From an uncultured Gammaproteobacteria bacterium (GTDB lineage Bacteria > Patescibacteriota > Microgenomatia > Levybacterales > UBA12049): a stretch of DNA of 64,000 bases. This document shows, in pieces, positions 2,602 to 61,280 of the stretch. The position numbers were made by a program, and so were the translations under genes. The DNA lies in NCBI GenBank assembly GCA_964497535.1, contig CAZCCG010000002.1, positions 169,297 through 233,296 of the forward strand. The letters are read 5' to 3'. Every line of letters begins with the position of its first letter. Position 1 is the first letter of the stretch. The notes beneath the pieces were generated by a model, which saw nothing but the letters and a program-made list of their open reading frames with translations, was not told where the DNA came from and did no database searches.

Positions 2602-3291
2602 TTATCGAAGTACTTCCCTAACTGTGGCTTGTGCAAGTATTTCCATTGTATCGTAGATCTGTATCTCTTCATGTTTTGGAACAATAAGTTGTAGATCTGT
2701 ACAAGCAAGAATTATCGTCTTGAGTCCTTGAGAAGAAAAACTTTCAATTATTTGCAATAGTTCTTCTTTATCTTTTTGAGTATGTTTGCTATGAACAAGA
2801 TGATTGATAATAGCAGTTACTCTTGACTGATCTTCTTCACCTGGAGTCTGGATGGTAATACCTTTTTCCGCAAGTCTTTGGTCATACAACTGTTTACGAA
2901 TGGTTGCTGAAGTTGCTAATATTCCAACGTCTGTTATTCTTTTCTCTTCCAAAAACCGTACTGTTTCATCAATTATACTTAAAACTGGGATTTTAACAGC
3001 CTTTATTATATCTTTAATAAAAATATGGACAGAATTACAGGGTATTACAATAAAATCTGCTCCCCCATCTTCTAGGCGTTTGGCTGCATCCAAAAGATAA
3101 GGAAGATATTTTTCTTCACCCTCAGCTTTTGCAATGAAGTCTTCTTCTATTTTATAAGGAAGCGGAACATTCCAAATAAGCATAGGCGGTCTTGTTTCTT
3201 TATTTTTCTCAAAAGTTGAAAATACTACTTCCAGGTAAAAGTTAGCAGTGGTCTGCGGACCGAGTCCTCCAATAACACCAACAGTTTTCAT
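2602..3291 (-). CDS. Aspartate/glutamate racemase family protein (aspartate racemase-like)
   Basis: N-terminus MKTVGVIGGLGPQTTANFY typical of Asp/Glu racemases; ~230 aa. Confidence 0.8.
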   Translation of the reverse strand: MKTVGVIGGLGPQTTANFYLEVVFSTFEKNKETRPPMLIWNVPLPYKIEEDFIAKAEGEEKYLPYLLDAAKRLEDGGADFIVIPCNSVHIFIKDIIKAVKIPVLSIIDETVRFLEEKRITDVGILATSATIRKQLYDQRLAEKGITIQTPGEEDQSRVTAIINHLVHSKHTQKDKEELLQIIESFSSQGLKTIILACTDLQLIVPKHEEIQIYDTMEILAQATVREVLR

Positions 3292-4901: not shown

Positions 4902-4960
4902 AGTGCCTCATTTTTTTTGATCTCTTGCATACTATGCTTTCTTCATTTATACTGCTTCTA

Positions 4961-5080
4961 ACATCAAGAGTGATAGATGAAATGCTATCCGGCAACCGAA
5001 GTATTTACGGTGCCAGTTCCAAATAATTGGAGATGCGGCGAGAGCAAAATACCAAAACCTCTCGCATGAGAGGTTTTTTT
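4961..5080 (+). promoter_or_regulatory. SAM-I clan (S-box-like) riboswitch leader of metK with terminator/SD-sequestering expression platform
   Basis: Conserved S-box strings ATCAAGAG (P1 5'), GATGAAA…CCGGCAACC, GGTGCCAgTTCC and AGATG (P1 3', pairs with CATC). It is followed by hairpin CCTCTC-gcat-GAGAGG (5058–5073) plus T7 (5074–5080) abutting the metK ATG. An upstream CGAGAG could form an antiterminator. Confidence 0.7.
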
Positions 5081-6184
5081 ATGAGAAATTATTTTACTTC
5101 AGAGTCCGTATGCGCAGGACATCCTGACAAAGTATGTGACCAAATAAGTGACGCAATTGTTGATGATGTTCTCTCCCAAGATAAAAACGGTAAAGTCGCA
5201 ATAGAAACACTTGTTACCCAAAACCAAATCACAATAGCCGGAGAAATAAAGGCTCATGCCAAACCTAATTTTAAAAAAATAGCCCGACGAGAAATAAAAA
5301 GACTCGGTTATACACTCCCAAAATTAAAATTTACTTCAAACTCTCCCATTTCTTTGTTTGTCCATGCACAGTCACCCGAAATCGCAGTTGGTGTTGAAAA
5401 AAAAGGAGCCGGGGATCAGGGAATGATGTTTGGGTATGCCTGTAAAGAAACCAAAGAATACATGCCGCTTCCGATTATGCTTGCCCATGCCCTCTGCCGC
5501 CAAATTGATACCCTGAGAGAGTCAAAAAAACTGCCATATTTGCTACCGGATGGCAAAAGCCAGGTAACAGTTCGCTATCAAAAAGGCAAACCCGTTGCAG
5601 TAGATCGGGTAATACTGGCTGTTCCCCATAGTGATATGGTACAACTCCAGCAAGTAAAGCACGACATTTACAAACAGGTTGTTATACCGATACTGCAAGA
5701 ATACGGATACAATACACATGAAAAAGATGTCCTGGTAAATGGGACGGGTGTCTGGCATTTCTCCGGTCCCGCAGCTGATACAGGAGTAACAGGCAGAAAG
5801 ATTGTTGTGGATACCTATGGAGGGTATGCCAGAGTTGGGGGAGGAGCCTTTTCAGGAAAAGACCCAACCAAAGTTGATCGCTCAGGAGCATATGCTGCCA
5901 GGTATTTAGCAAAAAATATTGTTGCTCATGGATTGGCGCAGCAGGCAGAGGTACGACTGGCATATGTTATTGGTAGAGCAGAACCGCTCATGCAAGAAGT
6001 TGAAACATTTGATACCAATACCGTTTCACAAAAAGCACTCATAGAATTTATGAAAAAACTCCTCGATTGTTCGGTAGAAGGCATTCTCAAGGGTCTTGCG
6101 TTACAACAACCTCTTTACCTACCTTGCGCAGCATACGGACATTTTGGAAGGTCACAGTTCCCCTGGGAAAAAATCGTGAAATAA
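5081..6184 (+). CDS. metK: S-adenosylmethionine synthetase
   Basis: MRNYFTSESVCAGHPDKVCDQISDAIVD matches the MetK N-terminus; the GAGDQG motif is present; the ATG at 5081 is preferred over the ORF-track TTG at 5027, which would read through the riboswitch. Confidence 0.9.
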   Translation: MRNYFTSESVCAGHPDKVCDQISDAIVDDVLSQDKNGKVAIETLVTQNQITIAGEIKAHAKPNFKKIARREIKRLGYTLPKLKFTSNSPISLFVHAQSPEIAVGVEKKGAGDQGMMFGYACKETKEYMPLPIMLAHALCRQIDTLRESKKLPYLLPDGKSQVTVRYQKGKPVAVDRVILAVPHSDMVQLQQVKHDIYKQVVIPILQEYGYNTHEKDVLVNGTGVWHFSGPAADTGVTGRKIVVDTYGGYARVGGGAFSGKDPTKVDRSGAYAARYLAKNIVAHGLAQQAEVRLAYVIGRAEPLMQEVETFDTNTVSQKALIEFMKKLLDCSVEGILKGLALQQPLYLPCAAYGHFGRSQFPWEKIVK

Positions 6185-6264
6185 GTCCTAGATATCAGTA
6201 TGTAGAGCACAAAAACCGCCTTTCTTACAGCCTCTAGCAATTTACAGCAAGATGTGTTATACTG

Positions 6265-6642
6265 TTGCCACAAAAGAAACCTATGAGAAAAATATTACTT
6301 TCAATCGTCCTTGCAGTCCTTATTACAGTTGGTGTCGGAAATCAACCAGCCTTTGCCCAGGTTTATCCGGGACCTCAGGCTCCTTATAATCAACCCATTG
6401 GTCTTCCTAACCCATTTCCGGGTCCTCAGCCATACGCAAATGACTACTATAGACAATATTATGCATATTTGGCCGCATATCAAAAATATATCATGGATTT
6501 TTATCGTTCTTATCAACAACCCTGTGCCGCCCCCTTGCCTTGCGGAGGTCAACCAGGTCCCTATCAACAACCATACCAGACCCCGGCAAATTATTATCCT
6601 CAACAACCAGGATTTTCTAACCCCTATCTCCAAATGTATTAA
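6265..6642 (+). CDS. Small secreted Pro/Gln/Tyr-rich low-complexity protein
   Basis: Signal peptide (MRKILLSIVLAVLITVGVGNQPAFA) followed by PGPQ/YQQP/YY low-complexity sequence; composition-based call only. Confidence 0.45.
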   Translation: MPQKKPMRKILLSIVLAVLITVGVGNQPAFAQVYPGPQAPYNQPIGLPNPFPGPQPYANDYYRQYYAYLAAYQKYIMDFYRSYQQPCAAPLPCGGQPGPYQQPYQTPANYYPQQPGFSNPYLQMY

Positions 6643-6669
6643 TCTTCTGGATCCTATAGAAGGTCACTT

Positions 6670-6939
6670 TTAGCATCTCCCCCGACAATATCTACTTACT
6701 GGATAGGTGTATGAGTAGGAATAATAATAAGGATAGTAGGTATACGTAACAGGGTAATACCAATAGGTCGGATAGTAATAATAGCTTACCGGATAATAAT
6801 ACGTTGGATATGAATACCATGCATGTGCAGACTTTACACTTCCTAATCCCGCAGATATCGCTATGACTACACTCAAAAGTATCATCAGAATAATTCTCAT
6901 AATACCTTTTACCTTACTATCCAAGAATATATTTTTCAA
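6670..6939 (-). CDS. Small secreted tyrosine-rich repeat protein (YYP/YTY repeats); probable true start at internal Met (~6900)
   Basis: Signal peptide MRIILMILLSVVIAISAGLGSVKSAHA followed by WYSYPTYYYPVSYYYYPTYWYYPVTYTYYPYYYSYSYTYP. Confidence 0.45.
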   Translation of the reverse strand: MKNIFLDSKVKGIMRIILMILLSVVIAISAGLGSVKSAHAWYSYPTYYYPVSYYYYPTYWYYPVTYTYYPYYYSYSYTYPVSRYCRGRC

Positions 6940-6981
6940 TCAAAATTCATTTAAAAATTTGTAAGAAAAAGAGGAAGGAAA

Positions 6982-7440
6982 CTAAAAAGATACGGCGATC
7001 GTACCGGATTTTGACATACCGGTAGTTGTGGTAGCATCATAATGGATCGTTGCCTGACGGGTATCCTGATCCAAAATGCCCTTAAATACAACATTTCCAT
7101 CTACAGTCAGTATTCCCAGCGGGCATGATATCGCACCTGTACCTGTAAAATCCTTCTGTGACGGGCCGGCATAATTTCCTGTGATTGTTCCATTACAGTC
7201 CCCGCTTATTTTCCCGGTGAGGGGTCCGCCGTTTTTAGGAGTAGTCATATCAATAGTTATATTCATACCCATAGCAGTAATAGTTTTTTTGATAGCTATA
7301 GTCTCTTGGGGAGACACAGTTACATGCTCTTGAGTAACGACCGGTTGGATTTGGGTATGTGAGGCAAATGGCAAAAGTGAGGTTATACCCAAAGCAAAGG
7401 TAGTAATTCCTTTTGATAATCCTTCAAAAAAGTATTCCAT
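6982..7440 (-). CDS. Hypothetical secreted protein
   Basis: 152-aa ORF, hydrophobic N-terminus, Gly/Thr-rich; no family recognised. Confidence 0.45.
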   Translation of the reverse strand: MEYFFEGLSKGITTFALGITSLLPFASHTQIQPVVTQEHVTVSPQETIAIKKTITAMGMNITIDMTTPKNGGPLTGKISGDCNGTITGNYAGPSQKDFTGTGAISCPLGILTVDGNVVFKGILDQDTRQATIHYDATTTTGMSKSGTIAVSF

Positions 7441-7755: not shown

Positions 7756-9027
7756 TTAGCGTATAATCAACGCTTCACGCTTGGGACCCGTGGAGATATA
7801 CTTAACCGATACTCCGGTTAGTTTTTCCAGTTTTGCGATATACATCTTTGCATTTTTCGGTAAATCTTTGTAATTGGTTATCCCCTGTGTTGATTGTTTC
7901 CAGCCCTTCATTGTTTTGTAGACAGGTTTTACCTGTGATAAAAAGACATCATCACCATCATAGTAGCTCACTTTTTTCCCATTGTAGGTATAGCCTATAC
8001 AAATTTTAATCGTTGGAAAACTATCCAATATATCTAATTTGGTTAAAGCAAGCGAGGTAAATCCCGACAACTCTGCGGCAAATCGTACCAGCGCGGCATC
8101 AAACCAACCACAGCGGCGAGGTCGTCCGGTTGTCGTCCCATATTCCTGACCAATCTCACGCAGTTTTTCTCCATCTTTATCAAATAATTCTGTCGGAAAA
8201 GGACCTGCGCCTACTCGTGTTGTATAGGCTTTGGTTACCCCAATCGTTTCTGTAATCTCACGAGGCGCGATACCCGCTGCAGCATTAATTCCTCCCGGTA
8301 CTATTGTTGATGCAGTGACAAATGGATACGTGCCCCAATCATTATCCAAAAATACCGCTTGTGCTCCTTCCAAAAGAAATGTTTTCTTCGTTTTCAAATC
8401 TGTGTGAAGCCGGGAGAAAAGTTCTTTGACAAAAGGCGCAATAATTTTTCTTAAAGGAGCATACTGTTTCTCTATTTCTTTTTGATTGAGCGGTTTTTGG
8501 GAAAAAGCTTTTAGAATTTTGTTTTTCACACGCAATTGTATCTCAAGTTTTTGTGCAAATCTCTTTTTGTCTAAAAAGTCAGATATACGAATACCGTTGT
8601 AACTTACTTTATCCGCGTATACAGGACCGATTCCCCGTCCTGTGGTACCAGTTTTTGCTTTTCCTTTGGCCTCTTCAAAAAGTTTGTCAAAAAGCTTATG
8701 GTAAGGGAGAATCAGATGACAACGGGGAGAAATAAAGAATCGATTATCAAGCTGTATACCTGCTTCTTTCAATAACTTGATTTCATCAACCAAAACTTGT
8801 GCATCGATTACGACACCGTTACTGATATATGACGTTGCCTTTTTGGAAAAAACTCCTGAAGGGATAAGATGAAGGGGAAATTTACCGTATTCGTTAATTA
8901 CCGTATGGCCTGCGTTGTTGCCTCCGTTAAAACGGATTACATAATCAAGGGTTGGGGATAACGCGTCTATGACTTTTCCTTTCCCTTCGTCTCCCCACTG
9001 AGAACCAAGAACTACAATAACTGCCAT
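7756..9027 (-). CDS. purA: Adenylosuccinate synthetase
   Basis: N-terminus MAVIVVLGSQWGDEGKGKVID is the PurA P-loop signature; 423 aa. Confidence 0.92.
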   Translation of the reverse strand: MAVIVVLGSQWGDEGKGKVIDALSPTLDYVIRFNGGNNAGHTVINEYGKFPLHLIPSGVFSKKATSYISNGVVIDAQVLVDEIKLLKEAGIQLDNRFFISPRCHLILPYHKLFDKLFEEAKGKAKTGTTGRGIGPVYADKVSYNGIRISDFLDKKRFAQKLEIQLRVKNKILKAFSQKPLNQKEIEKQYAPLRKIIAPFVKELFSRLHTDLKTKKTFLLEGAQAVFLDNDWGTYPFVTASTIVPGGINAAAGIAPREITETIGVTKAYTTRVGAGPFPTELFDKDGEKLREIGQEYGTTTGRPRRCGWFDAALVRFAAELSGFTSLALTKLDILDSFPTIKICIGYTYNGKKVSYYDGDDVFLSQVKPVYKTMKGWKQSTQGITNYKDLPKNAKMYIAKLEKLTGVSVKYISTGPKREALIIR

Positions 9028-10519: not shown

Positions 10520-10669
10520 AGAACCATATCATACCAAAAACAACCTGAAAAAATCCTGAGGAAAATGGAATACAATTTGGGATATCAAATATAAACTTAC
10601 ACACAAAGATTATAAGAAAAAATTAAAGGGGTGCTTCTTTTGAAACACCCCAAGAGGTTGTGTTAGGCT

Positions 10670-10870
10670 TTACAACGGATGCCCGAAGAAACAATGGGTA
10701 ACTTGCCAATGGTCTTGTTTACGGTACTTAGTACCACAATTGTTACACTGCAAGTACTGGAACGAGCATGAGGCATCGCCTGCACCAAGCGTTCCATGGC
10801 ACGTAATACCATATCCATCAACAAGTCCTTTGCACTTCTCGCATTGGTACGCCAGTACCGAAAGAGACAT
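10670..10870 (-). CDS. Small Cys-rich (zinc-ribbon-like) hypothetical protein inside the GC-rich islet; alternative overlapping frame 10663..10941
   Basis: CEKCKG...CNNCG paired Cys motifs; local GC elevated; weak call. Confidence 0.25.
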   Translation of the reverse strand: MSLSVLAYQCEKCKGLVDGYGITCHGTLGAGDASCSFQYLQCNNCGTKYRKQDHWQVTHCFFGHPL

Positions 10871-10913
10871 ATGCTGATGCTCCTTTCCCCAAACATCTGT
10901 TCATCAATCTCGC

Positions 10914-11096
10914 TTACCGAAGATAAATCTGAAACCTCCATGATACTAACATCCCCACAACTGGAGACGCTGCAAATACGAATGCTCCTGCTTGATGACC
11001 ATAGAATTGACCAACAAGAAGGGATGACGCCATAGCCAGGGAAACCGCTATCATCAGGAGCATAACTTTCCTTTGAGACCGTTTTTGTTCAGTCAT
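10914..11096 (-). CDS. Small hydrophobic hypothetical protein (60 aa)
   Basis: One or two predicted TM segments; in the GC-rich islet; weak call. Confidence 0.25.
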   Translation of the reverse strand: MTEQKRSQRKVMLLMIAVSLAMASSLLVGQFYGHQAGAFVFAASPVVGMLVSWRFQIYLR

Positions 11097-11250
11097 CGTC
11101 CTTCTCCCTTCAGTTCTTCGACAAACCGAGATACCCTATCAACGTACAAATCGAATTATACGAAAGCCATACAGATAATACAAATTGAGGAATTTTGTAG
11201 AATTACTTTAGCTCTATATGCCTTTATATTTCTAAGAAGACAAAAAATAG

Positions 11251-11290
11251 GGGTGGTCGAGTCCGCCAGCTGGCGGAGACTCGACCACCC
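11251..11290 (-). terminator. Intrinsic terminator-like hairpin (13-bp perfect stem GGGTGGTCGAGTC/GACTCGACCACCC with palindromic loop CGCCAGCTGGCG), U-run on minus strand
   Basis: Read directly; lies 22 nt downstream of minus-strand ORF 11312..11605 and is followed on the minus strand by CTATTTTTTG. Confidence 0.6.
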
Positions 11291-11311
11291 ACAGTGAAAG
11301 AAACTGAGAAG

Positions 11312-11605
11312 TCAATCACGAGGAGCTGCTGCAGCAAGCTCTGAGAGGCTCACTGCATACGCTGTACGACGCGCATTATGGTATGAGACGTATTTGTCGT
11401 TGATCTCCCTCTCGAACTCGAGAAACGACTGGATGACAGACTGTCCTCCAGATGAGCTATGAGGTACTTCTACCTTTACCAGAAGCAACTCACCAGTATC
11501 AAGCTGCTCCGCAAGATAGAAGTAATCCCCCCAATCCAAAGGACGAGTTCCTGGCAACCTTCCCGGGTCAAGCTCACGCCGTACCCATTGGCACGTTTTG
11601 GACAC
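11312..11605 (-). CDS. Hypothetical protein (97 aa), GC-rich islet
   Basis: ORF with higher GC than the host background and a downstream terminator; no homology recognised. Confidence 0.4.
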   Translation of the reverse strand: MSKTCQWVRRELDPGRLPGTRPLDWGDYFYLAEQLDTGELLLVKVEVPHSSSGGQSVIQSFLEFEREINDKYVSYHNARRTAYAVSLSELAAAAPRD

Positions 11606-11760
11606 AACTACTCTCCTTCCTCTTCTTGACAGAAAATCCTATCAGATTCTCTCAACCGGAGGCATTGTACTAAAAAAAGAAGATAAAAACAAATTGAAGA
11701 TTATTTATAAGAAAAGGGGGGTACAAGTCTGCACCCCCCGAAAAACGGAATAGGATACTT

Positions 11761-12225
11761 CTAATTAAGTTGTATCGAGTACTCCTCAAGCAGTGCATCC
11801 CCATCGAGGACATAGCGGGTATCAGCCCATGTGTCTCTTGTTTCAAGAGGACATGAGAGTGTTCGGCCTTCTCCTGCAAGGACCAGACTACACTTCTCAA
11901 GCCGGTTACGTCCCACATACACGAAGTGATCGAAGCATACCTGCAAGACAACCCCGTTTTCTGGCGCGTTCTGGTCGATGCTTGCGATGTACCCTACGCC
12001 ATAACGAGTCAGTAATCTCTCTTGCCATGGTTCCATCAATAGCTCGTGGGGGTAGAACCGGTATCCCCGCAATGCCCGATTGATAAGCCACACTGGTGCT
12101 ATTTGCTGGACAAGGATTACTCCCAACCAGTATGGAACAAAGCCAAAGACTTTGAGCACGTTCACGCTGCCTCCTCTTGAGTGATATACCAACGCTACCG
12201 CCATTTTATAAAAATTACTGTGCAA
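11761..12225 (-). CDS. Hypothetical protein (154 aa), GC-rich islet
   Basis: Local GC ~50% versus ~35% background; no homology recognised. Confidence 0.4.
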   Translation of the reverse strand: MHSNFYKMAVALVYHSRGGSVNVLKVFGFVPYWLGVILVQQIAPVWLINRALRGYRFYPHELLMEPWQERLLTRYGVGYIASIDQNAPENGVVLQVCFDHFVYVGRNRLEKCSLVLAGEGRTLSCPLETRDTWADTRYVLDGDALLEEYSIQLN

Positions 12226-12263
12226 TTACAAATAAAGGAAATTATACAAAGGATTGAAGAGAG

Positions 12264-33781: not shown

Positions 33782-34030
33782 GAGTACCTCCTTCTGTCAT
33801 ACCCTCCACGTTTTATCAGAAAGTGTGTTGGTTTTCTCCTCTCACTTGTAAATGTACCCTAAACCACAAAGCCAAAACACAAGGTTTTGGCAGCAGTTAT
33901 ATGTGAAAATCTCTCACTGGTATCAATCCGTATTGATGCCAGAATCAAGATTGTGAGAGAGGGTCTTGATAGATATCTTCCTCAAACGTCAAGCCGCATA
34001 TATGGCTTGTGTGTGGAAAGTATCTTGGGT

Positions 34031-34063
34031 GGGTTGGGGCCGAGTCTAACTCGGCCCCAACCC
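34031..34063 (-). terminator. Very stable GC hairpin (14-bp perfect stem GGGTTGGGGCCGAG/CTCGGCCCCAACCC, loop TCTAA) without U-tract
   Basis: Read directly; 16 nt downstream of the minus-strand stop at 34079; resembles U-tract-less terminators of high-GC bacteria. Confidence 0.5.
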
Positions 34064-34078
34064 GGATATGTAATGCAG

Positions 34079-34825
34079 TCAGGACGCTTTGTTCCTGCCG
34101 CTGGGCAAAACGACACCCCACTGCCTGAGCAGTTTGATGAAGTTGCCCTCGCCCATGCTGCGCACTACTTCCCGCAGAGAAGCAGCATCCCGGCTAACCG
34201 GTGCATCTGAGGTCAAGCAGACTAAGGCACTGCGTAAATCCCGGCAGATGACGCTCGCCTGCTTATCAGCGATATCGTCACCAACCACGATATCCACCAG
34301 ACCGTACTGACCTTTAACAGCCAACCGCACGATATGGGTACGCCACCCCTGACCGTACATCAGCTCCATTACCGCCTCCATGCTCTTGGGAAGCGGTTTG
34401 TTACCCCGATGCATCAGGATCTTTCGAAGGATGGAGCGAGCCAACAGCGGAATCCCCTTCGTCCGTTGCGGGATAGCAGGAGTTACTGCTGGCGCGGCCA
34501 CCGGTGGGGCAGGGGGAGCCGGCGGAGAGACAGGCGGTGTCACGGAACGACCTCCGCTCTGCCTGGCTCGGGAAACTGCATGATGAGGCGCAGACGCGGT
34601 CCCCAGATCATACTGGATCTCCGATAGTGCCCGCTGCGCTTCACTGATTGCTGCAGAAAGTTGACGTGCACTACGGCGACCCTTCTGAGGTCGCTCAACA
34701 AGTGCGAGAACCTTCTGTGCCGCCACATGGTAGCGTTGACTCTCTGCCTGAAGCTGAGCCGCGATACTACGCAGCGGCCTGAAAGTCTTCTCCTCAAACA
34801 ACGATACATCTGGCTTGGCCATCAC
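34079..34825 (-). CDS. Hypothetical protein with Pro/Ala-rich linker (PPAPPAPPVAAPAVTP) and C-terminal ~110-aa domain, GC-rich island
   Basis: High-GC ORF; no homology recognised. Confidence 0.5.
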   Translation of the reverse strand: MMAKPDVSLFEEKTFRPLRSIAAQLQAESQRYHVAAQKVLALVERPQKGRRSARQLSAAISEAQRALSEIQYDLGTASAPHHAVSRARQSGGRSVTPPVSPPAPPAPPVAAPAVTPAIPQRTKGIPLLARSILRKILMHRGNKPLPKSMEAVMELMYGQGWRTHIVRLAVKGQYGLVDIVVGDDIADKQASVICRDLRSALVCLTSDAPVSRDAASLREVVRSMGEGNFIKLLRQWGVVLPSGRNKAS

Positions 34826-34916
34826 TTCTTCCTTCCACTATTCGTAGGAGACATGGCGCGATGCCATATCTCATGGAGGTTTGGTAACACTCCCCATCCA
34901 CATCAGAGGATCCTTT

Positions 34917-36872
34917 CTAGCGCTTGCGGCCGCTCGGCCGACTGACGCGCTGCTTCGACCTCCCATACAGGAGGAAGGCATTGCGATGATGCTCAGCTGG
35001 ATCCCGGGTCGGCAAGGTGACCTCAGTCACCGCCATAGCGGCACTGAGCATAACCAGGTCCCGCTGCTGTTCGATATCTCGAGCAGCGATAGCAGCAGCC
35101 AAAGCTTCTGCTTCCTGGTTTACGATTACCCAACCCAGATCCATTTCATCGACGCTATACGGCTTGTCAGGATCATCCAAGGGGGAAATCCGAACCCGTA
35201 TAGAAGGATGTAGGTGAACCTCCTCAGGAGAAGGAGTCCTCTTGGGTAAACCTGTCTCGATGTAGAAGGTGGCTCTGTGGCCAGGATCCAGAGGAGACAG
35301 GTAGAAGGTGATACTGTTGCGGCCGCTCACCTTAAAGGGTGGCGGGACCGTAACTGAAACCACATATTTCCCATGCGGCTTCTTCCCGTAGGTGATGCGT
35401 CCTCCTTCCTGGGTTACCCTGACAGGTTCCCCTTCCAGGAAGATACGCACACCCATGACGGGTTGACCCCACTCATCAATCGCCCTGATGATCACTCGAT
35501 CTGACAGGGGATCAATTGGTGGGTCTACGATAACTCCTTTCTCTTTCCTCCGGCGAGTCTCTTTCCGAGTCTCACCGGGACCGGGGACCAGGAGGGCATC
35601 TCTAAAGATGTCCATTTCTCCCATGGCTTCGGTAATCGCATTCCCCACGTCTTCGCCGACCTTGTGGATCTGCTCGTCGTTTTGTCGGCGGCGAATCTCC
35701 TCAGAGGCCTTTTTGATCTCCGGCTCGAGCTTCTTCAGCTCATCTACCAGAAGATCAAGAATCTCAGACGGCTGGGGAGCACTCTTGCGAGAGTTCCATG
35801 GAAAGACAGTGTCAGGCAAGTCGGGCGCGCTGACAAACCCGTTCAACTCAGTCCATGGGGGACTATTGAATTGAGGCAGACTTGTCAAGTCGTTCACCCG
35901 GGACCCGGCCCGACGCAGGTCAAGCTGATGTTGCCCGCGCTTTACTTCAACCTCCAGATAGAGATCCACCTCGAAGGTAATATCAGTTCCATACAGACGA
36001 AGTGTCCGATGAGGAATGATATTCACACCCCGATACTTGGTAGCCTCTACCGGGATGATGCGTCCGGTCTTGGTCTTACGACCTTCCTCGGACACTCGAT
36101 CCACGATGACAAGCCGCAGCCGGTCAATCCGGATATCTTCGCTGAAGCGGCTGGAGAATGCGTCCCTGAGCAACCACGGCCGCAGGGCAGCTTCTACCCG
36201 ATCTTTGAACTCAACAACTTCTACTTGAGTCCCGGATCGAAGTTCTTTACCGGTTTCCGGATCCCTCAGGACTACATCCACCTCTTCAATTGTATATTTG
36301 CGGTCGTTGACTGCTAACATCTCTGCAGTTGGCGCTACGAGAAGACAGGTAGGGACCTCCCAGGGATGGAACTTCCGACCCCAGAATTCCTCTGCCATGT
36401 CAACTGTCGCCCTCGTGTACCATACAGCCCGGTTCCCTATGGAAGTGAATCCTAGGATACCCAAGCCCTTGGTTCCTCGTACCCGCTTACGCGGCTTATG
36501 CCGCTTAAATGAGTATGCGGCACTCTGCATCATCATCTTAAAGGACTTCCAGGAGAGCTCGTGCTTGATCTCATCAGCCAGACTGAGGCTGTGGGCGGAA
36601 GGGACACCTTTTTTGATGTCCTCCAGAAGCATATCGAACAGAAGGTTATCGTCAGGCATGAGCGACGGCACCAGGCCATGCCCATTGCCTACGACGATGA
36701 GCTTACCTGGTTCTGTGATCACCCAAACGCGGTCGGCACCGGCATCGATTTCATTCTCAACCAGTTCCGCCGCGGCATCAATCGGCGAATCGTACAGTGC
36801 GCCGTGATGCAACATGGAGGCGCCGGGATTGATTTCCGCCGTCCCCTCATAGCGTTGGTAGCGTTGGTTCAT
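34917..36872 (-). CDS. GHKL-superfamily ATPase (MutL/MORC-like HATPase_c at extreme N-terminus) with C-terminal carboxypeptidase-regulatory-like beta-sandwich region
   Basis: N-box AAAELVENEIDAGA (ExxxNxxDAGA, as in MutL VKELVENSLDAGA), G1 VVGNGHGL, G2-like GTKGLGILGFTS; C-terminal IFLEGEPVRVTQEGGRITYGKKPHGKYVVSV pattern. Confidence 0.65.
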   Translation of the reverse strand: MNQRYQRYEGTAEINPGASMLHHGALYDSPIDAAAELVENEIDAGADRVWVITEPGKLIVVGNGHGLVPSLMPDDNLLFDMLLEDIKKGVPSAHSLSLADEIKHELSWKSFKMMMQSAAYSFKRHKPRKRVRGTKGLGILGFTSIGNRAVWYTRATVDMAEEFWGRKFHPWEVPTCLLVAPTAEMLAVNDRKYTIEEVDVVLRDPETGKELRSGTQVEVVEFKDRVEAALRPWLLRDAFSSRFSEDIRIDRLRLVIVDRVSEEGRKTKTGRIIPVEATKYRGVNIIPHRTLRLYGTDITFEVDLYLEVEVKRGQHQLDLRRAGSRVNDLTSLPQFNSPPWTELNGFVSAPDLPDTVFPWNSRKSAPQPSEILDLLVDELKKLEPEIKKASEEIRRRQNDEQIHKVGEDVGNAITEAMGEMDIFRDALLVPGPGETRKETRRRKEKGVIVDPPIDPLSDRVIIRAIDEWGQPVMGVRIFLEGEPVRVTQEGGRITYGKKPHGKYVVSVTVPPPFKVSGRNSITFYLSPLDPGHRATFYIETGLPKRTPSPEEVHLHPSIRVRISPLDDPDKPYSVDEMDLGWVIVNQEAEALAAAIAARDIEQQRDLVMLSAAMAVTEVTLPTRDPAEHHRNAFLLYGRSKQRVSRPSGRKR

Positions 36873-38638
36873 TAAAACCCTACCTCCTTCATGACTCTGA
36901 TGCGGTCTTCTCGAACCACTCCCTGTTTTACCAGGATTTCCAGAAGCTGGATAACGCCGTTCATAGCGCTTCCATGCTCCCTTCGGAGTTGATCTCGTGT
37001 AGCAGGATCATCAGCCTCCATATACTCTCGCAAGAGTGCTTCAAGACTGCTTAACGTTACCGCAACATCGCTTCCCTCTGTATGAGCCTTCCTCCTTCTG
37101 AGGCGCTCCTCAAATGCTCTTCCTTCGAGCATCTGTTGCAGACTTGTTACCGCGTTGTGTATCTGACCCAAACGCTCTGCCTGCTCGTGCAGTAACTGCT
37201 CGCGCATCTGTGCAAGATCTTGTTGGATTTGGGCTCGAATGGCTTCGTTATCTGCTGCTCGTTTTCCTCCCATAGCTAAAACTACCACCTCTGTTAAGGT
37301 TCTTGATATCTCAGCACCAATTTGCTGAGATAGTGCATGGACGAGGTTATCGATATAACCTCCTACCAAACCCCCTACAGAAGAGGATAACGATGGTACA
37401 GATGGTTCTAGTACAACCGCCTCTTCCTCCGATGGTGGCGGGAGTCGGTCTTCAGACGGTTCTTCCTCTTCGCCACTCTCGTCTCCAAGAGACGCGGGTG
37501 CAGAATCTACGTCCTCCCCATCCTCCGGGTTCTCCGACTTTTTCTCTAGCCACTCCTGATATTCTTGCTCCGACCAGGCTCGCTTCACTTCGCGAAAACC
37601 TTTTCCGTGTGCCACCCAGATAGGGGGCAACGTACAGGGATCCGCAAGTGGTAACCGGCTCAGCCGGTGGATGTTGGCGTAGTGCTCTGTGTTGAGTACA
37701 TCTTCGCCGTGGATGATCTTGTGCCATGTCCCCAACGGTATACCAGCTTCGTGTGCAAAAACCGTCAGTGACGTACCACGATTGGCAGGAATCCACTCCC
37801 GCAAATCGTGCATCAGGTCCTGGGCAAATGTCGGTGGAGGCGGTTGCTCTTGTAAAGCCAGCCACTCCTCCAATCGTTGTTCTGTCCACGCCCGATGAAT
37901 CAGGATGTGTTTCCTGTTATCCCGAGGACCAACTTGTGAAGGTCGGCCAGGGATAATCGTCGGCCGGGATTGTGGCAACCTCGTGAGGCGGTATATACGA
38001 GCATAGTACTCGTAGTCCTCCGCTTCAACGATAGACTCGCCGTAAACAACCCGCTTGAGCACATTCCAGGGTACTTCCAGCTCAGCAGACAACCTCTTGT
38101 TATCGTATCCGTGCTCACCCATCCAGGCGAGAATCGCCGTGGAAAGAGCTGCACGGAACTGCTGCGGAGTCAGCTCTTCCGATGAAGAACCACTCCTTGC
38201 AGCTGCAACTGCGGACGCTTGGTCCATGTCCACCTCCTCTTCAGTTCCTCCCTGTTGTGTGCTTCCTAAAACAGGACCTGCAGACGCAGCTTCCTGCTTA
38301 CGATTCTTCTCTAGCCACTCCTGATATTCTTGCTCCGACCAGGCACGGACTTTCCCCGACAGTATTCCACCTCTTCGCACATGTGAATATGCAATCGGTA
38401 GCCTACTCGGGTCAGCCTCTTGTATACCAAAGTCGTGATGAAGCCTGGCATAGACATCTGTTGCATCCAGGATTGCCCCTGCGGTAAGCAGCAGCTTTCC
38501 TTCGGCTTCAGATACCCCAAGCTCCTCGAAGAAATCTGGCTCAGATCGATGCTCTTTCTCAAGCATCTCCAGTACAGCAAAGGCAACCTTTTCTGCCCAC
38601 TGCTGTTCCTCGGTGGTAAACGCCAAGTTGACGTTCAA
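36872..38638 (-). CDS. Hypothetical protein with three tandem ~120-aa repeats (each ending R-A-W-[ST]-E-Q-x-x-x-E-W-L) and C-terminal coiled coil; translationally coupled to the GHKL ATPase gene
   Basis: Protein-level repeats RAWSEQEYQEWLEK (x2) and RAWTEQRLEEWLALQ; 37-nt perfect DNA repeat at 37543–37579 and 38308–38344 (765 nt apart, in frame); its stop overlaps the downstream start at 36872. Confidence 0.55.
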   Translation of the reverse strand: MNVNLAFTTEEQQWAEKVAFAVLEMLEKEHRSEPDFFEELGVSEAEGKLLLTAGAILDATDVYARLHHDFGIQEADPSRLPIAYSHVRRGGILSGKVRAWSEQEYQEWLEKNRKQEAASAGPVLGSTQQGGTEEEVDMDQASAVAAARSGSSSEELTPQQFRAALSTAILAWMGEHGYDNKRLSAELEVPWNVLKRVVYGESIVEAEDYEYYARIYRLTRLPQSRPTIIPGRPSQVGPRDNRKHILIHRAWTEQRLEEWLALQEQPPPPTFAQDLMHDLREWIPANRGTSLTVFAHEAGIPLGTWHKIIHGEDVLNTEHYANIHRLSRLPLADPCTLPPIWVAHGKGFREVKRAWSEQEYQEWLEKKSENPEDGEDVDSAPASLGDESGEEEEPSEDRLPPPSEEEAVVLEPSVPSLSSSVGGLVGGYIDNLVHALSQQIGAEISRTLTEVVVLAMGGKRAADNEAIRAQIQQDLAQMREQLLHEQAERLGQIHNAVTSLQQMLEGRAFEERLRRRKAHTEGSDVAVTLSSLEALLREYMEADDPATRDQLRREHGSAMNGVIQLLEILVKQGVVREDRIRVMKEVGF

Positions 38639-38862
38639 CGCAACCTCCTTCTTTTCTGTTTCCAGTTATCGTATAAGGTATTACATATACCCTCTCTCAC
38701 TTTTCAATGTGCTTTTTTATTCCATGGTAAAACCATTTGGGCACTCTATGCCCGCAGGTCAAAACATGGATAAGAATTATACTATAAATTGCATCTTGTA
38801 GTAAAGTCAGCAAGAGGCTAATCGATTCCCGGGAATATTCAAGAAGAGATCTTATAATACAA

Positions 38863-54906: not shown

Positions 54907-57900
54907 TTAATCTACTTCAAATATAGTGTAGTTTTTATCAAAAGTAAAAATGTAGTTATTGTAAGGAGATGCTGTCTGTGCTTCCGATTTTTTTTGTTTT
55001 GCTTGCGAGATAGTTTCAGATTGGATAATATTAAGACTCGTATCTCTATAAACAAACCATACCCCGTCTGAAAGGCCTACCGGCAAAACCCATGCTTGTC
55101 CTTGTTTAATTGGTACATTTACAAACTGTAATGTTGTATGGACAGGAAACTGAGGGTGTTCAATTCTCAAAGCAGTGAGTGTATCTTGTGTAATAATTCC
55201 GGCTTTTTCCCAATCATTTTTTTGAATATTCAACTCATACCGGTAAAACATCCCTAATAAAATAACAATCACAAAAAGGACTAAGACAAGATGTGATTGT
55301 TTTTTCAAGAATACTGTTAAAAACACATGTAACGCACCCATGACCAATAGGATATAACCAATACTTGAGAAATATGCAAGATTTGGCATAACTATCCCAA
55401 ACGCCAAATAAGGAACGAGAGCAATCAAAAATACACTCATTGCAAAAACAAAGATTCTACGAAACTCCGCATCTGTTCCCTTCCTTTTTCCAAACGTGAG
55501 TAATGCTGTTCCAAGAATAAGTATCCCTATGATAATCCCAACAAATGGCTGAACAACCACCAATAGAGCAAGATAGCTTCCTAAGGTAGGAAGGATATTT
55601 TGTAGAGTATAAGGGACTCCCAATAGTAGTGGCACTCCTGCATGCTGATGGATCAGTAAATATACGGCAATAGCTACAAAGAAAGGTATATATCCAACAC
55701 AGATACTTTTTATATTTCTTCCTTTTGAGAAGATACCATCATAAGTAATAAGCAAGAGTGGAAAAATAAGTGATGAATCATTTGAAAAAAGTGCCAGAAT
55801 CATAAAAACAAGACTGATCAAATAAGAAATCGCTGATTTGGCATCCGTATATTTTATATAGAAATACAATCCATATACGATAAAGAGTACCGATAGGTTA
55901 ACAGGTAATGTCGAAATCCAGAAAATATTCTCACCATGTAACGGTAAGAGACCAAATAAGAATGCAGCAGCAAATCCCCATACCTTACTCTTGAAGAGTT
56001 TAGCAATAAGAAGAAAAACACCAAATGTAATCAACAAGTGAGTCAGAAGTGAAAAGAGATGGTAACCTTGAGGTTGAAGCGAGAAAACTGTATAGAGTGC
56101 GAACATCACCGCTTTAGCAATAGGATTATAAAAACCTGCAGAAATACCGGTAAAATAATGAGGCACATCAGGGAAATTAGATGATGCTGCCAAACGAAGC
56201 CAGATGAAATCCTCACCTACGAAAAAGTTATTAATACTGGGCATAAATACAACCATTATTATTACCAGTAAATAAAAGAAGATCAAAATATTTGATGAAA
56301 ATATTTTTTTCAAATAGAAAATGTAATCAATTTTTTTCTTTTTAAATAGATAGACAACCCCGGCCCCAATCCCGAGTAATATCCACAAGTTTTCAGCTAC
56401 TTTTGAAGCTTCAAATACATCAATAAAAAGGGCATTTACCAAAAGACCTACTACTCCCCCACAAATACCCCATACATAAGCCTGTGGATAATCTGTTTCT
56501 GACAACTCATGCCTATATACATAGAGCAAGATTCCTAATATTAGGAATATCGAAAAAAATGTCAGTAGTCCCAAAAATCCTGACTCTCCCATAAATCTTA
56601 AGTAATCTCCATCCGTAGCCAGAGTAATTGTTGAGAATCCACTTCCCAAGGGGGGAAAACGCAGAAATGCCCTCCAGGCATTTGGCCATTCTGCTTGAAA
56701 CCGTGTTGTAAACGATATGTCATACACCAAAGCCTTTTGAATAAGAAAGCTTCCTGAAACGGTAGATATCTCAACCCCACCATATTTAAGTTTTAGTCTT
56801 TTTGCTTCTTCTGCCGCTATTTTAGACTGGATCACCGCCGATGTAGTTGAAACAGGAGCCTTTGATTGAGGAACGACTATAAAGGATGAACCGGCAGGAA
56901 GATTTTGTGTTGGTGGTGCCGAACCTACCACAACGGGATTTTTGCTTATTCTATTTTGAAGCTCTGTCGGAAGGGTTGAAATGGTTTCCCCAACTACCTG
57001 CCCCTGGTTATTCGTTACAATTGAGGTCAACCGAATGGTATCTAAAAACCTCTTGGCGGTTGATCCGCTAAACAAAAGTAACAAAGAAAAACTGATAATA
57101 AGAATCGGGGGGATAAACTTTTTCTTTTTGGCAAAAACAAGTGCTGCTATCATCCCAACAATATACGCAATAAATGATACACGGGAAGCAGTAAAGATAA
57201 GAAGCATCAGAGCTCCCATGGAAAGAACCAACATTCCCAAACGCGCATACCACTTTTTAAGCATAAGAAAGAGAAGTATCAGAACCGGAATTACGAGTAC
57301 TAAATATGCTGCTAAATCATAATGCCCTCCAAATGTCGAGGTAATTCGACCATCAGGAGGAAGACATAATGGGATTCCTTTGGCAAATTCTTCATTTCCT
57401 GTTTGGAAAGAAGGAAAACAAAATGGATATTTTTCAAAAAATTGAGGAAATTTAGCCCAAAAAAACAGGTAGCTTCTTTGCCCTATCCCGTAGATTACTA
57501 CTCCCGCGATTGCTATGCAAAACACAATAAGATACTGCTTTAAAATCTTTGTTGATGTAATTGTTGAAAAGGCTACAAAAAAGAGAATCATATACTCAAG
57601 TCTACGAAGATACTGCAGAATTGAGACATGAGGAAAAAAATTAGCAATCGTTGGACCAATTAAAATAAGGCCTACTAACAGAGATCCCAATGCACAAATC
57701 CAATAAATACCAAATGGCATGGCCAAAGCAACAGGTATGTGAACTTTTTTCCGCAGCAGCTGAATAAGCCATACTCCTACACTTGTCGCAATCAGAAAAT
57801 CTTCCAAGCGAATATACACCCAGGTTCTTTCAATATGGATACTGGGTAATTTGGGGTATAACGGAATAAAAACGAGTAATAATAGGACTAAGATTCTGAG

Positions 57901-57936
57901 TAGATTTTGGTCAAGAAAGTGTAAGAGCCTCTTCAT
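54907..57936 (-). CDS. Very large polytopic membrane protein (1009 aa); probable O-antigen ligase/polymerase-like domain fused to a GT-C/YfhO-like domain
   Basis: More than 20 hydrophobic segments in two blocks separated by a ~150-aa hydrophilic region; glycan-cluster context. Confidence 0.45.
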   Translation of the reverse strand: MKRLLHFLDQNLLRILVLLLLVFIPLYPKLPSIHIERTWVYIRLEDFLIATSVGVWLIQLLRKKVHIPVALAMPFGIYWICALGSLLVGLILIGPTIANFFPHVSILQYLRRLEYMILFFVAFSTITSTKILKQYLIVFCIAIAGVVIYGIGQRSYLFFWAKFPQFFEKYPFCFPSFQTGNEEFAKGIPLCLPPDGRITSTFGGHYDLAAYLVLVIPVLILLFLMLKKWYARLGMLVLSMGALMLLIFTASRVSFIAYIVGMIAALVFAKKKKFIPPILIISFSLLLLFSGSTAKRFLDTIRLTSIVTNNQGQVVGETISTLPTELQNRISKNPVVVGSAPPTQNLPAGSSFIVVPQSKAPVSTTSAVIQSKIAAEEAKRLKLKYGGVEISTVSGSFLIQKALVYDISFTTRFQAEWPNAWRAFLRFPPLGSGFSTITLATDGDYLRFMGESGFLGLLTFFSIFLILGILLYVYRHELSETDYPQAYVWGICGGVVGLLVNALFIDVFEASKVAENLWILLGIGAGVVYLFKKKKIDYIFYLKKIFSSNILIFFYLLVIIMVVFMPSINNFFVGEDFIWLRLAASSNFPDVPHYFTGISAGFYNPIAKAVMFALYTVFSLQPQGYHLFSLLTHLLITFGVFLLIAKLFKSKVWGFAAAFLFGLLPLHGENIFWISTLPVNLSVLFIVYGLYFYIKYTDAKSAISYLISLVFMILALFSNDSSLIFPLLLITYDGIFSKGRNIKSICVGYIPFFVAIAVYLLIHQHAGVPLLLGVPYTLQNILPTLGSYLALLVVVQPFVGIIIGILILGTALLTFGKRKGTDAEFRRIFVFAMSVFLIALVPYLAFGIVMPNLAYFSSIGYILLVMGALHVFLTVFLKKQSHLVLVLFVIVILLGMFYRYELNIQKNDWEKAGIITQDTLTALRIEHPQFPVHTTLQFVNVPIKQGQAWVLPVGLSDGVWFVYRDTSLNIIQSETISQAKQKKSEAQTASPYNNYIFTFDKNYTIFEVD

Positions 57937-58798: not shown

Positions 58799-59392
58799 TT
58801 AGCGAAACCAGGCTGCTCTGCCAAGTTTATAATGAAGATCTTTTACGTTTCGCACTCCAATCTGTTTTGCAGGTACTCCACCAACAATCTGCATTGATGC
58901 TACATCTTTAGTCACAACCGCACCTGCTCCTACCACTGCTCCTTTTTTAATTGTCACTCCGGGCAGAATAATTGCACGAGGCCCGATAAAAACATAATCT
59001 TCAATAATAACGGGTTCTGTTTGGGCTTCAAAGCTTTCACTCTGGATATTATGTTCACCATTATAAATCATTACCTGTGAAGCAATATCAACATGGTCTC
59101 CAATTCGAATCGTATCCCGACCATCTAATATAACTTCTTCTCCTATAATCGAATCGTGTCCAATAACAATGTTTTCCGGTTTATAAAACCTGGCACCTGT
59201 GTGAATAGTTGTCCCTTTCCCAATGTGTATGCCCGCCATTCGGTAAAAAAATCTTCGAATATGATGAGCGGGAAGGTATCCAATACCGCTGAGAAGAAAA
59301 AGAACAAATTCATCCAAGACGGTATCTGCTCGTACTATTGATTTTTTGACAATTTGGGAATGAGAGAGGCTATTTCCGTACTTATCCTGCAT
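58799..59392 (-). CDS. Hexapeptide-repeat (left-handed beta-helix) acetyltransferase
   Basis: Repeated [LIV]-G-x-x-x-x hexapeptides (IGHDSIIGEEVILDGRDTIRIGDHVDIASQV); maltose/galactoside O-acetyltransferase-like. Confidence 0.85.
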   Translation of the reverse strand: MQDKYGNSLSHSQIVKKSIVRADTVLDEFVLFLLSGIGYLPAHHIRRFFYRMAGIHIGKGTTIHTGARFYKPENIVIGHDSIIGEEVILDGRDTIRIGDHVDIASQVMIYNGEHNIQSESFEAQTEPVIIEDYVFIGPRAIILPGVTIKKGAVVGAGAVVTKDVASMQIVGGVPAKQIGVRNVKDLHYKLGRAAWFR

Positions 59393-60515
59393 GATTTCCC
59401 CCTACTTCTTGTAATATTTCAAGAGTTTTTTTTGCGGTTTTTTCCCAACTGAATTTTTTTACTTGTTGATATCCTTTTTCTGTCATAGCATCTCTCAGTT
59501 TTTTATCTGCCAGAAGCTTTTCCATAGCATGGGTAATTTCATCAATATTCATCGGATCAATATAGAAAGCAGCATCTCCTCCTGCTTCAGGCAATGAAGA
59601 AACATTGCTGGTAATTACCGGACATCCCAGAGACATTGCCTCCAAAACAGGTAACCCAAATCCCTCATACAGACTGGGCAAAATAAAAAATAAAGCATGC
59701 TTATAGAGTGCATGAAGCTGGTCATCATTTACGAACTCAAGGAATTTGACATGCTCTTCAACTCCATAAAGTTTTGGTGCTGCCAAAATTTCTTCATACA
59801 ACCATCCCTTCTTCCCAACAATCAGCAACTGAGGAATCTTTTTGGGGTCTTTTAATAATTTCGAATAAGCTTCAACGAGTCTAACGATATTTTTTCGAGG
59901 CTGGAGCGTTCCCACAAACAGGATATAGTCTTTGGATATTCCATATTTTTCTTGCAGAGAATCGATATCTACTGTTTTGGTCATAGATATAGCTTTGATC
60001 CCAAGGTATGTTACGGCAACCTTATCCTGGGAAACACTGTAGAATTTGATTATATCACGTTTGGATGCTTCACTGATTGTAAGAATCTTTGTGGCATTCT
60101 TTACAGAATATGCGGTCCAATTTTGAAGCTGATACAGATCTTTTGCTGTAAATAATTGCGGATAGTGTATATAAGAAAGATCCATAATAGAAATAACTGT
60201 TGGAACAGGGCAAAAACGTGGAGCATAATGCGTCGGTGAAAAAAAGACAGAAGGCCTTGGACTATGAGTATATAAATCAAAAGGAAGCCCAAATTGCGTC
60301 CAAAGTTTAGCCGGTTTCACAATTCTATAATGCCATTTCTCACTCTCTTTTGGAAAATCGCTACCAGGCTGACGCTTTAAATATATTTGATATTTAATAT
60401 TTGGTATTTGATATTCGTTGAATTGATCCAACAACTCAAAACCATATTCACTAATACCTACCTTATTCACAACATTTGCTTCATTACCATCAATTCCTAT
60501 TATCATAACTTTCAA
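59382..60515 (-). CDS. Glycosyltransferase family 4 (GT-B)
   Basis: GT4 N- and C-domains ([19 protein letters not shown]); 377 aa. Confidence 0.8.
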
Positions 60516-60524
60516 CTTTATAAA

Positions 60525-61058
60525 CTAAATCCCCGGGTATACTACTGTTAATTTCTCAGGGGATATTTTTAGTATCTCTACAGCATCTTTTTTTGTCGCC
60601 TCAGAAATACAAATAATCGTATCGCATTCTTTCTTAACCCATTCAAGCCGCTTTTTCTGCACAGTAACAATTTTTGAATCTGTTTCTTGCGGATATTTGT
60701 ATATCACCAAATCATACAAAATAGTCACATTTTTTGCATTTGTAGGTGGCTGTGTCCAATCTGAAGAGATAAATAAATCAATATCTCCTATCAACCACTC
60801 TATTGGGATAATATGAAATCTATTCCATACTAAATTAAGTAGTATCGGAGGAAATTTGAATTCTTTAATTTTAACTTTTGAATTGGAATTTTGAATTTTT
60901 AATTTTGAGTTTTGAATTCTCTTTCTCATACTTGAGTAGAATAAAACATACTCATTTTCCCGATCTTGCTCAATAATATAGTGGACAAGATTCACAAGAT
61001 AATTTGCGACTCCGGTATCAGGATATGCAAGTTGGCTAATGTCAATTCCAATTCTCAT
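60525..61058 (-). CDS. GT4 N-terminal-domain-only protein (split or truncated glycosyltransferase) carrying a low-complexity repeat insertion
   Basis: MRIGIDISQLAYPDTGVANY resembles a GT4 N-domain start; only 177 aa; contains an NSKLKIQNSNSKVKIKEF segment encoded by the AATTTTGA-type DNA repeat. Confidence 0.5.
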   Translation of the reverse strand: MRIGIDISQLAYPDTGVANYLVNLVHYIIEQDRENEYVLFYSSMRKRIQNSKLKIQNSNSKVKIKEFKFPPILLNLVWNRFHIIPIEWLIGDIDLFISSDWTQPPTNAKNVTILYDLVIYKYPQETDSKIVTVQKKRLEWVKKECDTIICISEATKKDAVEILKISPEKLTVVYPGI

Positions 61059-61061
61059 AAG

Positions 61062-61280
61062 TTATCGTTTCTTTAGACCCACAATATATAATAGTATAGC
61101 CAATAAAAAAAATCCCGCTGCATACCATGTGAGACGCTCTGCTGTGAAAAAAATCCATTTTGCAAAAAGAGGAATGGAAAAGAGGAGACACAACAATCCA
61201 GCTGATACTAATAAATATCTCTTATGGATACCAACGAGTATGATTGCTGTAATAATAAATATTATATCCTGTATTTTCAT
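61062..61280 (-). CDS. Small membrane protein (72 aa, 2 TM)
   Basis: Hydrophobic ORF whose start overlaps the stop of the upstream gene. Confidence 0.4.
   Translation of the reverse strand: MKIQDIIFIITAIILVGIHKRYLLVSAGLLCLLFSIPLFAKWIFFTAERLTWYAAGFFLLAILLYIVGLKKR

Follow-up and report, generated by a model that had tools for sequence, protein, structure and literature searches.

Two small open reading frames (ORFs), here termed ORF A and ORF B, face each other between metK (about 5081..6184, + strand) and purA (7756..9027, - strand) in the 64,000-nucleotide stretch of contig CAZCCG010000002.1 that was analysed in this work and is referred to as the window. ORF A is a genuine conserved gene with a very narrow distribution. 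ORF B is a probable rather than an established species-specific gene, possibly a recently born one, and we put its translation at roughly two chances in three. Our preferred reading, to which we give a probability of about 45%, is that A and B are unrelated lineage-restricted genes for small Sec-exported proteins, which would serve as self-associating envelope or matrix material.

The first-pass annotation had described a convergent pair of small ORFs at this place, both with a clean signal peptide followed by extreme low-complexity sequence. Both ORFs do exist in convergent orientation, with their stop codons 27 bp apart, and both signal peptides are of the Sec type (AFA/Q in A and AHA/W in B, the slash marking the cleavage site). 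The earlier outer coordinates, 6265 and 6939, correspond to upstream TTG codons; these were dropped as starts, the preferred ones being ATG 6283 for A and ATG 6900 for B. The low-complexity description fits B, the mature part of which is 45% Tyr in a Tyr-Pro-Thr-Ser sequence. It fits A only in part, as Pro/Gln/Tyr arms are combined there with a conserved helical core.

ORF A, a conserved gene with a predicted exported product

The features of ORF A and its conserved neighbour are as follows (gene coordinates include the stop codon).

6283..6642, + strand: ORF A, 119-aa precursor of a putative secreted Pro/Tyr/Gln-rich protein
6255..6263, + strand: extended -10 promoter element of ORF A, TGTTATACT, read from the sequence
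6283..6357, + strand: predicted signal peptide of ORF A, 25 aa, ends in AFA, cleavage before Gln26
6442..6519, + strand: conserved core of ORF A (residues 54-79, DYYRQYYAYLAAYQKYIMDFYRSYQQ), a predicted amphipathic helix
6523..6543, + strand: C-x5-C loop of ORF A (C81..C87, then Gly), present in both homologues
6982..7440, - strand: 152-aa orphan gene conserved beside ORF A; its N-terminus is hydrophobic and two Cys residues are conserved

ORF A is called as a gene on independent assemblies. Its coding potential was scored in bits per codon with a codon model trained on 37 long ORFs of the window. ORF A scores +0.13, the highest of the six frames, the other five frames of the region ranging from -0.05 to -0.64. 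Its synonymous-codon score (0.18) agrees with that of the window genes (0.20 +/- 0.05). Two overlapping ORFs had been named as antisense rivals whose codon usage should be checked. 6301..6633 (- strand) scores -0.37 bits per codon and -0.24 for synonymous codons; 6311..6673, which is not antisense and occupies a second frame of the + strand, scores -0.15 and -0.20. Both behave like wrong frames, so the check came out in favour of A.

The search for similar peptides in related genomes, also proposed earlier, was productive for A and yielded nothing for B. A word-indexed search of 5.8 billion proteins has found one homologue of A, P0001, which is 126 aa long and 58% identical. It is encoded on the 51-kb contig L003 from another sample (run SRR21359062), which has about 70% nucleotide identity to the window, and the order of genes is the same there: FKBP, metK, A, the 152-aa gene, a small ORF, purA and LytR. 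Nei-Gojobori counts for A against P0001 give pN 0.22 and pS 0.71, with dN/dS about 0.11, and dN of the neighbouring 152-aa gene is similar to that of ORF A. Judged from these substitutions, ORF A is under purifying selection. A HMMER profile search of 1.84 billion representative proteins recovered the P0001 cluster alone, and the alignment had no match among the JGI metagenome contigs. Neither A nor B matched anything in Pfam, NCBIfam, PHROGs or the PDB sequences at permissive thresholds.

ATG 6283 is used by the gene callers on Logan contigs L001 and L002, the DNA of which is 100% identical to the window, and gives the 119-aa product. The alignment with P0001 also begins at this Met; further upstream the two reading frames continue into unrelated sequences, MPQKKP in the window and MIYFGHKTKD in L003. 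The extended -10 box (TG-n-TATACT) and the GCCACAAAA downstream of it are conserved in L003, unlike the rest of the spacer; transcription is predicted to start near 6270, leaving a leader of about 12 nt (GCCACAAAAGAAACCT). ATG 6283 was taken as the start of A because of caller usage, the homologue alignment and the conserved -10 box and leader taken together.

Upstream signals of the other window genes were also surveyed. No Shine-Dalgarno-like motif precedes 34 of the 42 genes, and a TATAAT-like box lies 5-12 nt upstream of the ATG in about 11 of them, about a quarter (minus-strand starts at 3291, 4460, 7440, 10519, 14385, 19473 and 44613 are examples). The scarcity of Shine-Dalgarno motifs and the proximity of these boxes to the ATG suggest widespread leaderless or very short-leader mRNAs.

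The signal peptide of ORF A, MRKILLSIVLAVLITVGVGNQPAFA, is followed by QVYPG and that of ORF B, MRIILMILLSVVIAISAGLGSVKSAHA, by WYSYP. Both have the attributes of Sec substrates processed by signal peptidase I, i.e., a positive n-region, an uncharged hydrophobic core and an AXA motif: MRK, ILLSIVLAVLITVGVG and AFA/Q in A; MR, IILMILLSVVIAISAGLG and AHA/W in B. The cleavage context GNQxAFA/QVY of ORF A is conserved in P0001. A crude Sec-signal filter was applied to the 445 ATG-started ORF variants of at least 60 aa in the six frames of the window. It was passed by 10: A, B, seven variants of six other long ORFs and one decoy. The six long ORFs were taken as genes (four have Pfam domains and one is of FtsL size). 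No Cys is located in or beside either signal peptide, so a lipoprotein lipobox is absent; the Cys residues are at positions 81 and 87 in A and 71 and 75 in B. Sortase LPXTG signals are likewise missing, as A ends in NPYLQMY and B in RYCRGRC and neither has a C-terminal hydrophobic segment.

The alignment with P0001 shows that ORF A is not uniformly low-complexity. Following the signal peptide is a variable Pro/Gln arm which holds a conserved GLPNPFP. Then comes the core, with the consensus DYYRQYYAYLAAYQKY(I/L)(M/A)DFYRSYQQ in the two homologues. P0001 matches ORF A at 24 of the 26 positions of this core, with synonymous differences in the DNA, and dN/dS is 0.09. Directly after the helix both proteins have C-x5-C-G (CAAPLPCG in the window, CGYQPSCG in P0001), and the C-terminal Pro/Gln/Tyr arm (...YYPQQ...) terminates in MY.

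AlphaFold2, run for A on the two-sequence alignment, predicts helices over residues 2-19 and 52-77, the latter with pLDDT of about 70-80; the rest of the chain after the signal peptide is below 50. The hydrophobic moment of the core is 0.43 against 0.18 +/- 0.09 in shuffled sequences (p 0.003), with a periodicity peak at 100 degrees. Tyr and Phe are spaced 4-3-4-3, and the heptad a and d positions are taken by Y55, Y59, Y62, Y66, Y69, F73 and S76, with Y56, L63, I70 and Y77 at the flanking e position. In the predicted helix, residues 54-79 have the heptad pattern of a coiled coil.

Mature A, counted from one residue past the cleavage site, contains 19 Pro, 18 Tyr and 14 Gln (about 20, 19 and 15% of 93 residues) and only five charged residues; Tyr makes up 15% of the whole precursor. 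The 49 residues of mature B include 22 Tyr, 6 Pro, 5 Ser and 5 Thr, and Tyr makes up 29% of the whole B precursor. The net charge of both products is near zero. By comparison, the window gene set (48 ORFs) has a mean Tyr content of 4.0% and a maximum of 7.3%. As a control, 6407 open frames of at least 60 aa were taken from about 1 Mb of DNA of more than 80 bacteria: only B (22) and the A homologue (12) reach 12 or more Tyr per 45 residues.

ORF B, a probable gene in the spacer

The features of ORF B are as follows.

6670..6900, - strand: ORF B, candidate 76-aa precursor (stop codon included)
6820..6900, - strand: predicted signal peptide of ORF B, 27 aa, ends in AHA, then Trp
6926..6955, - strand: promoter-like TTTAAA-18-TATATT upstream of ORF B, from a consensus scan

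ORF B occupies an otherwise empty 339-bp spacer and is separated from the 152-aa gene upstream by an 81-bp gap. The mature product (WYSYPTYYYPVSYYYYPTYWYYPVTYTYYPYYYSYSYTYPVSRYCRGRC) consists of six units led by Tyr-Pro (WYSYPTY, YYPVSYY, YYPTYW, YYPVTYT, YYPYYYSYSYT and YPVSRYCRGRC) and ends with a C-x3-C motif, CRGRC.

The most serious alternative is that only A is a gene and that B arose by chance, as an open frame in a spacer that separates convergent genes and is AT-rich and triplet-biased. Its signal-like start would then result from the Ile/Leu/Val-rich translation of AT-rich DNA. We consider this a real contender, though distinctly less probable than a translated ORF B. In its favour, ORF B is not called with any of its three possible starts in the NCBI or Logan annotations, and no homologue was found at E <= 1 in the word-indexed search of 5.8 billion proteins. 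ORF B is also absent from L003, the sole relative, where the stop codons of A and the 152-aa gene are only 30 bp apart; the extra DNA of the window (~310 bp) is essentially ORF B with its upstream region. The whole ORF scores -0.02 bits per codon, which is the highest of the six frames, with a synonymous score of 0.13, but its mature part scores -0.18, within the upper tail of the wrong frames. The sequence is identical in the three source samples, SRR9179560, SRR9179562 and SRR9179563, so there is no population variation, and the sister contig offers no orthologue in which a deficit of nonsynonymous changes could appear.

Several observations speak against a chance frame. Only 0.7% of shuffles of the 339-bp spacer contain an ATG-started ORF of at least 76 codons (p 0.007), and the signal filter let through a single decoy among its 10 passing variants of 445. 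The 22 in-phase Tyr codons within 49 are unparalleled in the roughly 1 Mb of control DNA. Tandem Repeats Finder detected no tandem repeat or microsatellite in the DNA of ORF B that would explain this phase. Copies of the DNA repeat follow one another at 21 and 18 nt, both multiples of three, and three Pro codons (CCA, CCG and CCT) and both types of Ser codon (TCN and AGY) are used; such spacing and synonymous variation fit a constraint at the amino acid level. A non-coding role of this DNA was considered and rejected, as there is no Rfam match, no unusually stable fold (z-score -0.39) and no tandem repeat.

Besides the promoter-like sequence of ORF B, AGGT is located 10 nt upstream of its ATG. 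These matches are weak, given that the region is AT-rich and most genes here have no Shine-Dalgarno sequence, and they add to the case for a chance frame. A terminator-like hairpin (7005..6989) at the end of the upstream 152-aa gene, overlapping its stop codon, suggests that ORF B has a transcript of its own. No good terminator hairpin was found between ORF A and ORF B.

We return to ORF B as a probable species-specific gene. As far as two genome sequences can tell, a gain of ORF B here looks the same as its loss in the sister.

A and B had been introduced as a pair. By position and composition they are one, yet judged from their sequences not by descent: BLASTP produced no alignment between them, which led us to dismiss both paralogy and an origin of B from an inverted copy of A. 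The remaining similarities, an uncorrected tblastn match (E 0.014) driven by composition and a 24-nt inverted match of 71%, reflect common TAT codons and signal peptides.

Possible function and genomic surroundings

Export through Sec and release by signal peptidase I would yield an A product of roughly 94 residues and a B product of 49. From sequence and the AlphaFold2 model, A would consist of a disordered Pro/Gln/Tyr arm, a 26-residue helix, a C-x5-C loop and a second arm ending in Met-Tyr. As the a and d (and e) heptad positions of the helix are almost all Tyr, it can be pictured as a 'tyrosine zipper' via which A may self-associate or oligomerise, extending its two disordered Tyr/Pro/Gln arms. 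B, if made, would be essentially one arm of the A type. Nearly uncharged, Tyr-dense sequences broken by Pro are typical 'sticker-spacer' polypeptides, which stick to each other and to carbohydrate. Presumably, the arms of A and the whole of B could make multivalent aromatic and hydrogen-bond contacts, mutual or with wall polysaccharide. The presence of Cys pairs in A, in B and in the neighbouring putatively secreted 152-aa orphan suggests that those of A and B form disulfides outside the cell. Oxidative Tyr-Tyr cross-linking, also suggested in the first-pass annotation, is conceivable, with no support here.

The window is rich in envelope genes. It carries GH18, LytR_cpsA_psr and a polysaccharide cluster (DUF4012, a sugar transferase, many glycosyltransferases and PMT_2). 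FtsZ, FtsA, MurG, FtsW and MraY were recognised by Pfam on the identical contigs, and FtsI, MraW and MraZ directly.

Some points weigh against the proposed role, in addition to those raised against ORF B. The function of both products is speculative, being derived from composition and analogy. The A family has two members, so the evidence of conservation comes from one pairwise comparison, and the AlphaFold2 models are of low confidence overall (mean pLDDT about 54). Our Pfam scan covered about 39 long ORFs of the window, with most of the mur/fts run at 14.4-32.9 kb left out; among the ORFs scanned there was no oxidase, sortase signal, lipobox or wall-binding domain. In particular, these ORFs showed no laccase, peroxidase, tyrosinase, radical-SAM, P450 or sortase-type domain, and the earlier idea of oxidative cross-linking gained no support. 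The amyloid-like matrix envisaged for these peptides gained nothing either: neither protein matched an amyloid family of Pfam or NCBIfam, and AlphaFold2 placed no strands.

A bolder version of the preferred reading would have B as a newborn gene, created by the gain of ~310 bp, and A and B together as the founders of a class of extracellular Tyr-sticker proteins not seen before, which form a cross-linked or phase-separated surface layer. We regard this as unlikely. If true, such a layer would be a prokaryotic analogue of glutenin- or resilin-type materials.

Still less probable is that A, B or both are precursors of bioactive peptides, be it a bacteriocin-like or proline-rich antimicrobial peptide, a signal or an enzymatically Tyr-cross-linked peptide. 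Tyr-containing precursors of cross-linked peptides are known. The products are small, both have Cys pairs, B contains aromatic repeat motifs, and metK, coding for the S-adenosylmethionine (SAM) synthetase, adjoins. However, the genes within 5 kb include no radical-SAM, P450, ATP-grasp or other maturation enzyme, no cyclodehydratase, no peptidase-transporter or other transporter and no immunity gene, which is not the setting of a precursor of a ribosomally synthesised and post-translationally modified peptide. The N-termini are classical Sec signals and not leader peptides, the conserved part of A is an amphipathic helix and not a short core motif, and the near-zero net charge is unlike that of Arg-rich proline antimicrobial peptides.

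The weakest of the alternatives, by a small step, is the earlier suggestion that A and B are adhesins attaching an episymbiont to its host surface, possibly after oxidative Tyr cross-linking: predicted export, Tyr richness and lineage specificity are compatible with fast-evolving surface factors, but the window bears no mark of an episymbiont (it encodes metK and purA, division and wall functions and a large polysaccharide cluster), purA has its best GTDB matches in Anaerolineales genomes (distant, 53% and 52% identity), no oxidase was found among the scanned ORFs, and A is conserved (dN/dS 0.1) rather than diversifying. Neither host attachment nor the episymbiont premise gained support here.

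The preferred reading, self-associating envelope or matrix material, concerns a locus with the following surroundings. The genes within 5 kb are GH18, a racemase, an HflX-like GTPase, FKBP, metK, the 152-aa orphan, a 75-aa ORF, purA and LytR_cpsA_psr. The 152-aa orphan has an equivalent position in L003, with 65% identity. It has no family in Pfam, NCBIfam or PHROGs, the only NCBIfam hit being a sub-threshold one to XopA/Hpa1 (E 0.048, 14 bits against a cut-off of 100). Among 5.8 billion proteins it has only three distant homologues (P0004-P0006), which lie in unrelated contexts; no Tyr-rich neighbours were seen at the P0005 and P0006 loci. Its alignment found no match among the JGI metagenome contigs and GTDB genomes.

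Directly upstream of metK is a SAM-I/IV riboswitch (4956..5061, + strand; RF01725, 44.2 bits against a gathering score of 41.1). Since it overlaps the TTG at 5027 listed as the metK start, metK probably begins at a later ATG, which gives 367 aa, as on the Logan contigs.

The 1.7-kb region between LytR and ftsZ (10520..12263), with slightly raised GC (43%), contains only small ORFs of no known family. On the Logan contigs these encode 92, 60, 97 and 147 aa, and L003 has different genes there.

A GC-rich island (~34000..38700, - strand; 53-56% against 36-42% around it) lies beside the division and wall genes and adjoins ftsI. It includes 34917..36872 (651 aa, weak HATPase_c_3) and 36872..38638 (588 aa, no Pfam match). 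The island was probably acquired horizontally and might be a defence module.

Within the polysaccharide cluster, the 177-aa ORF at 60525..61058 (- strand) has only an N-terminal GT4 domain and is followed by a 377-aa ORF with a GT1 domain (59382..60515); the two may be a split or duplicated glycosyltransferase. Two other ORFs of this cluster, 54907..57936 (- strand, 1009 aa) and 61277..63250 (- strand, 657 aa), have no Pfam match and multiple hydrophobic N-terminal segments; they could be polymerase- or ligase-like membrane proteins.

Comparison with known systems

The nearest bacterial analogy for A and B, which implies no family assignment, is CotC and CotU of the outer spore coat of Bacillus subtilis. 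These are small, tyrosine-rich proteins that assemble into high-mass forms in an insoluble extracellular layer, for which dityrosine and disulfide links have been discussed (PMC7944565). A and B share with them small size and a very high Tyr content. Membership of the CotC/CotU family was looked for in family-library searches only, and there was no match in Pfam, NCBIfam or PDB. The mother cell is the site of CotC and CotU synthesis; the two proteins are not known to carry Sec signal peptides and are also rich in Lys and Asp. In contrast, A and B are nearly uncharged and Pro-rich and have Sec signals, and no sporulation context was seen.

Eukaryotic Tyr-rich matrix proteins include the high-molecular-weight glutenins of wheat with their GYYPTSPQQ and PGQGQQ repeats, amelogenin and resilin. 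Tyr-rich wall proteins are also represented by GAM56 and GAM82 of the coccidian oocyst wall (PMC2726925). Like A and B, proteins of this kind combine a signal peptide with disordered repeats rich in Tyr, Pro and Gln, and their assembly relies on aromatic contacts and beta-turns and on terminal cross-links through Cys or Tyr. ANYYPQQPG of A and YYYPTS/YYPVS of B resemble glutenin nonapeptides, a likeness of composition. The eukaryotic proteins are much larger and not homologous, and the conserved Tyr-heptad helix is unique to A.

This helix likens A to surface proteins built on coiled coils or amphipathic helices, given the a/d spacing of residues 54-79, the strong moment and the predicted helix. 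It differs from them in comprising only about 3.5 heptads and in having a core of Tyr instead of Leu, Ile or Val. Functional amyloids such as curli CsgA, Fap, TasA and chaplins are not a fitting model, since neither a Pfam or NCBIfam match nor AlphaFold2 strands were found. ORF B, for its part, resembles de novo or orphan intergenic genes: it is found in one genome, within ~310 bp that the sister lacks, has no homologue and is biased in composition. It is thus a candidate young gene of extreme composition, of the kind that gene finders skip, as B is in no annotation on record.

The practical importance of these genes is limited, since uncultured bacteria commonly have secreted orphan proteins of low complexity and the A family has so few members. 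Should A and B both prove to be expressed, they would provide compact examples, from bacteria, of exported Tyr/Pro 'sticker' polypeptides with almost no charge, and the conserved all-tyrosine face of the A helix could serve as a small model of assembly driven by aromatic residues, or as a motif for biomaterials. Overall, A and B may be considered a variant of the Tyr-rich secreted structural proteins rather than a new system.

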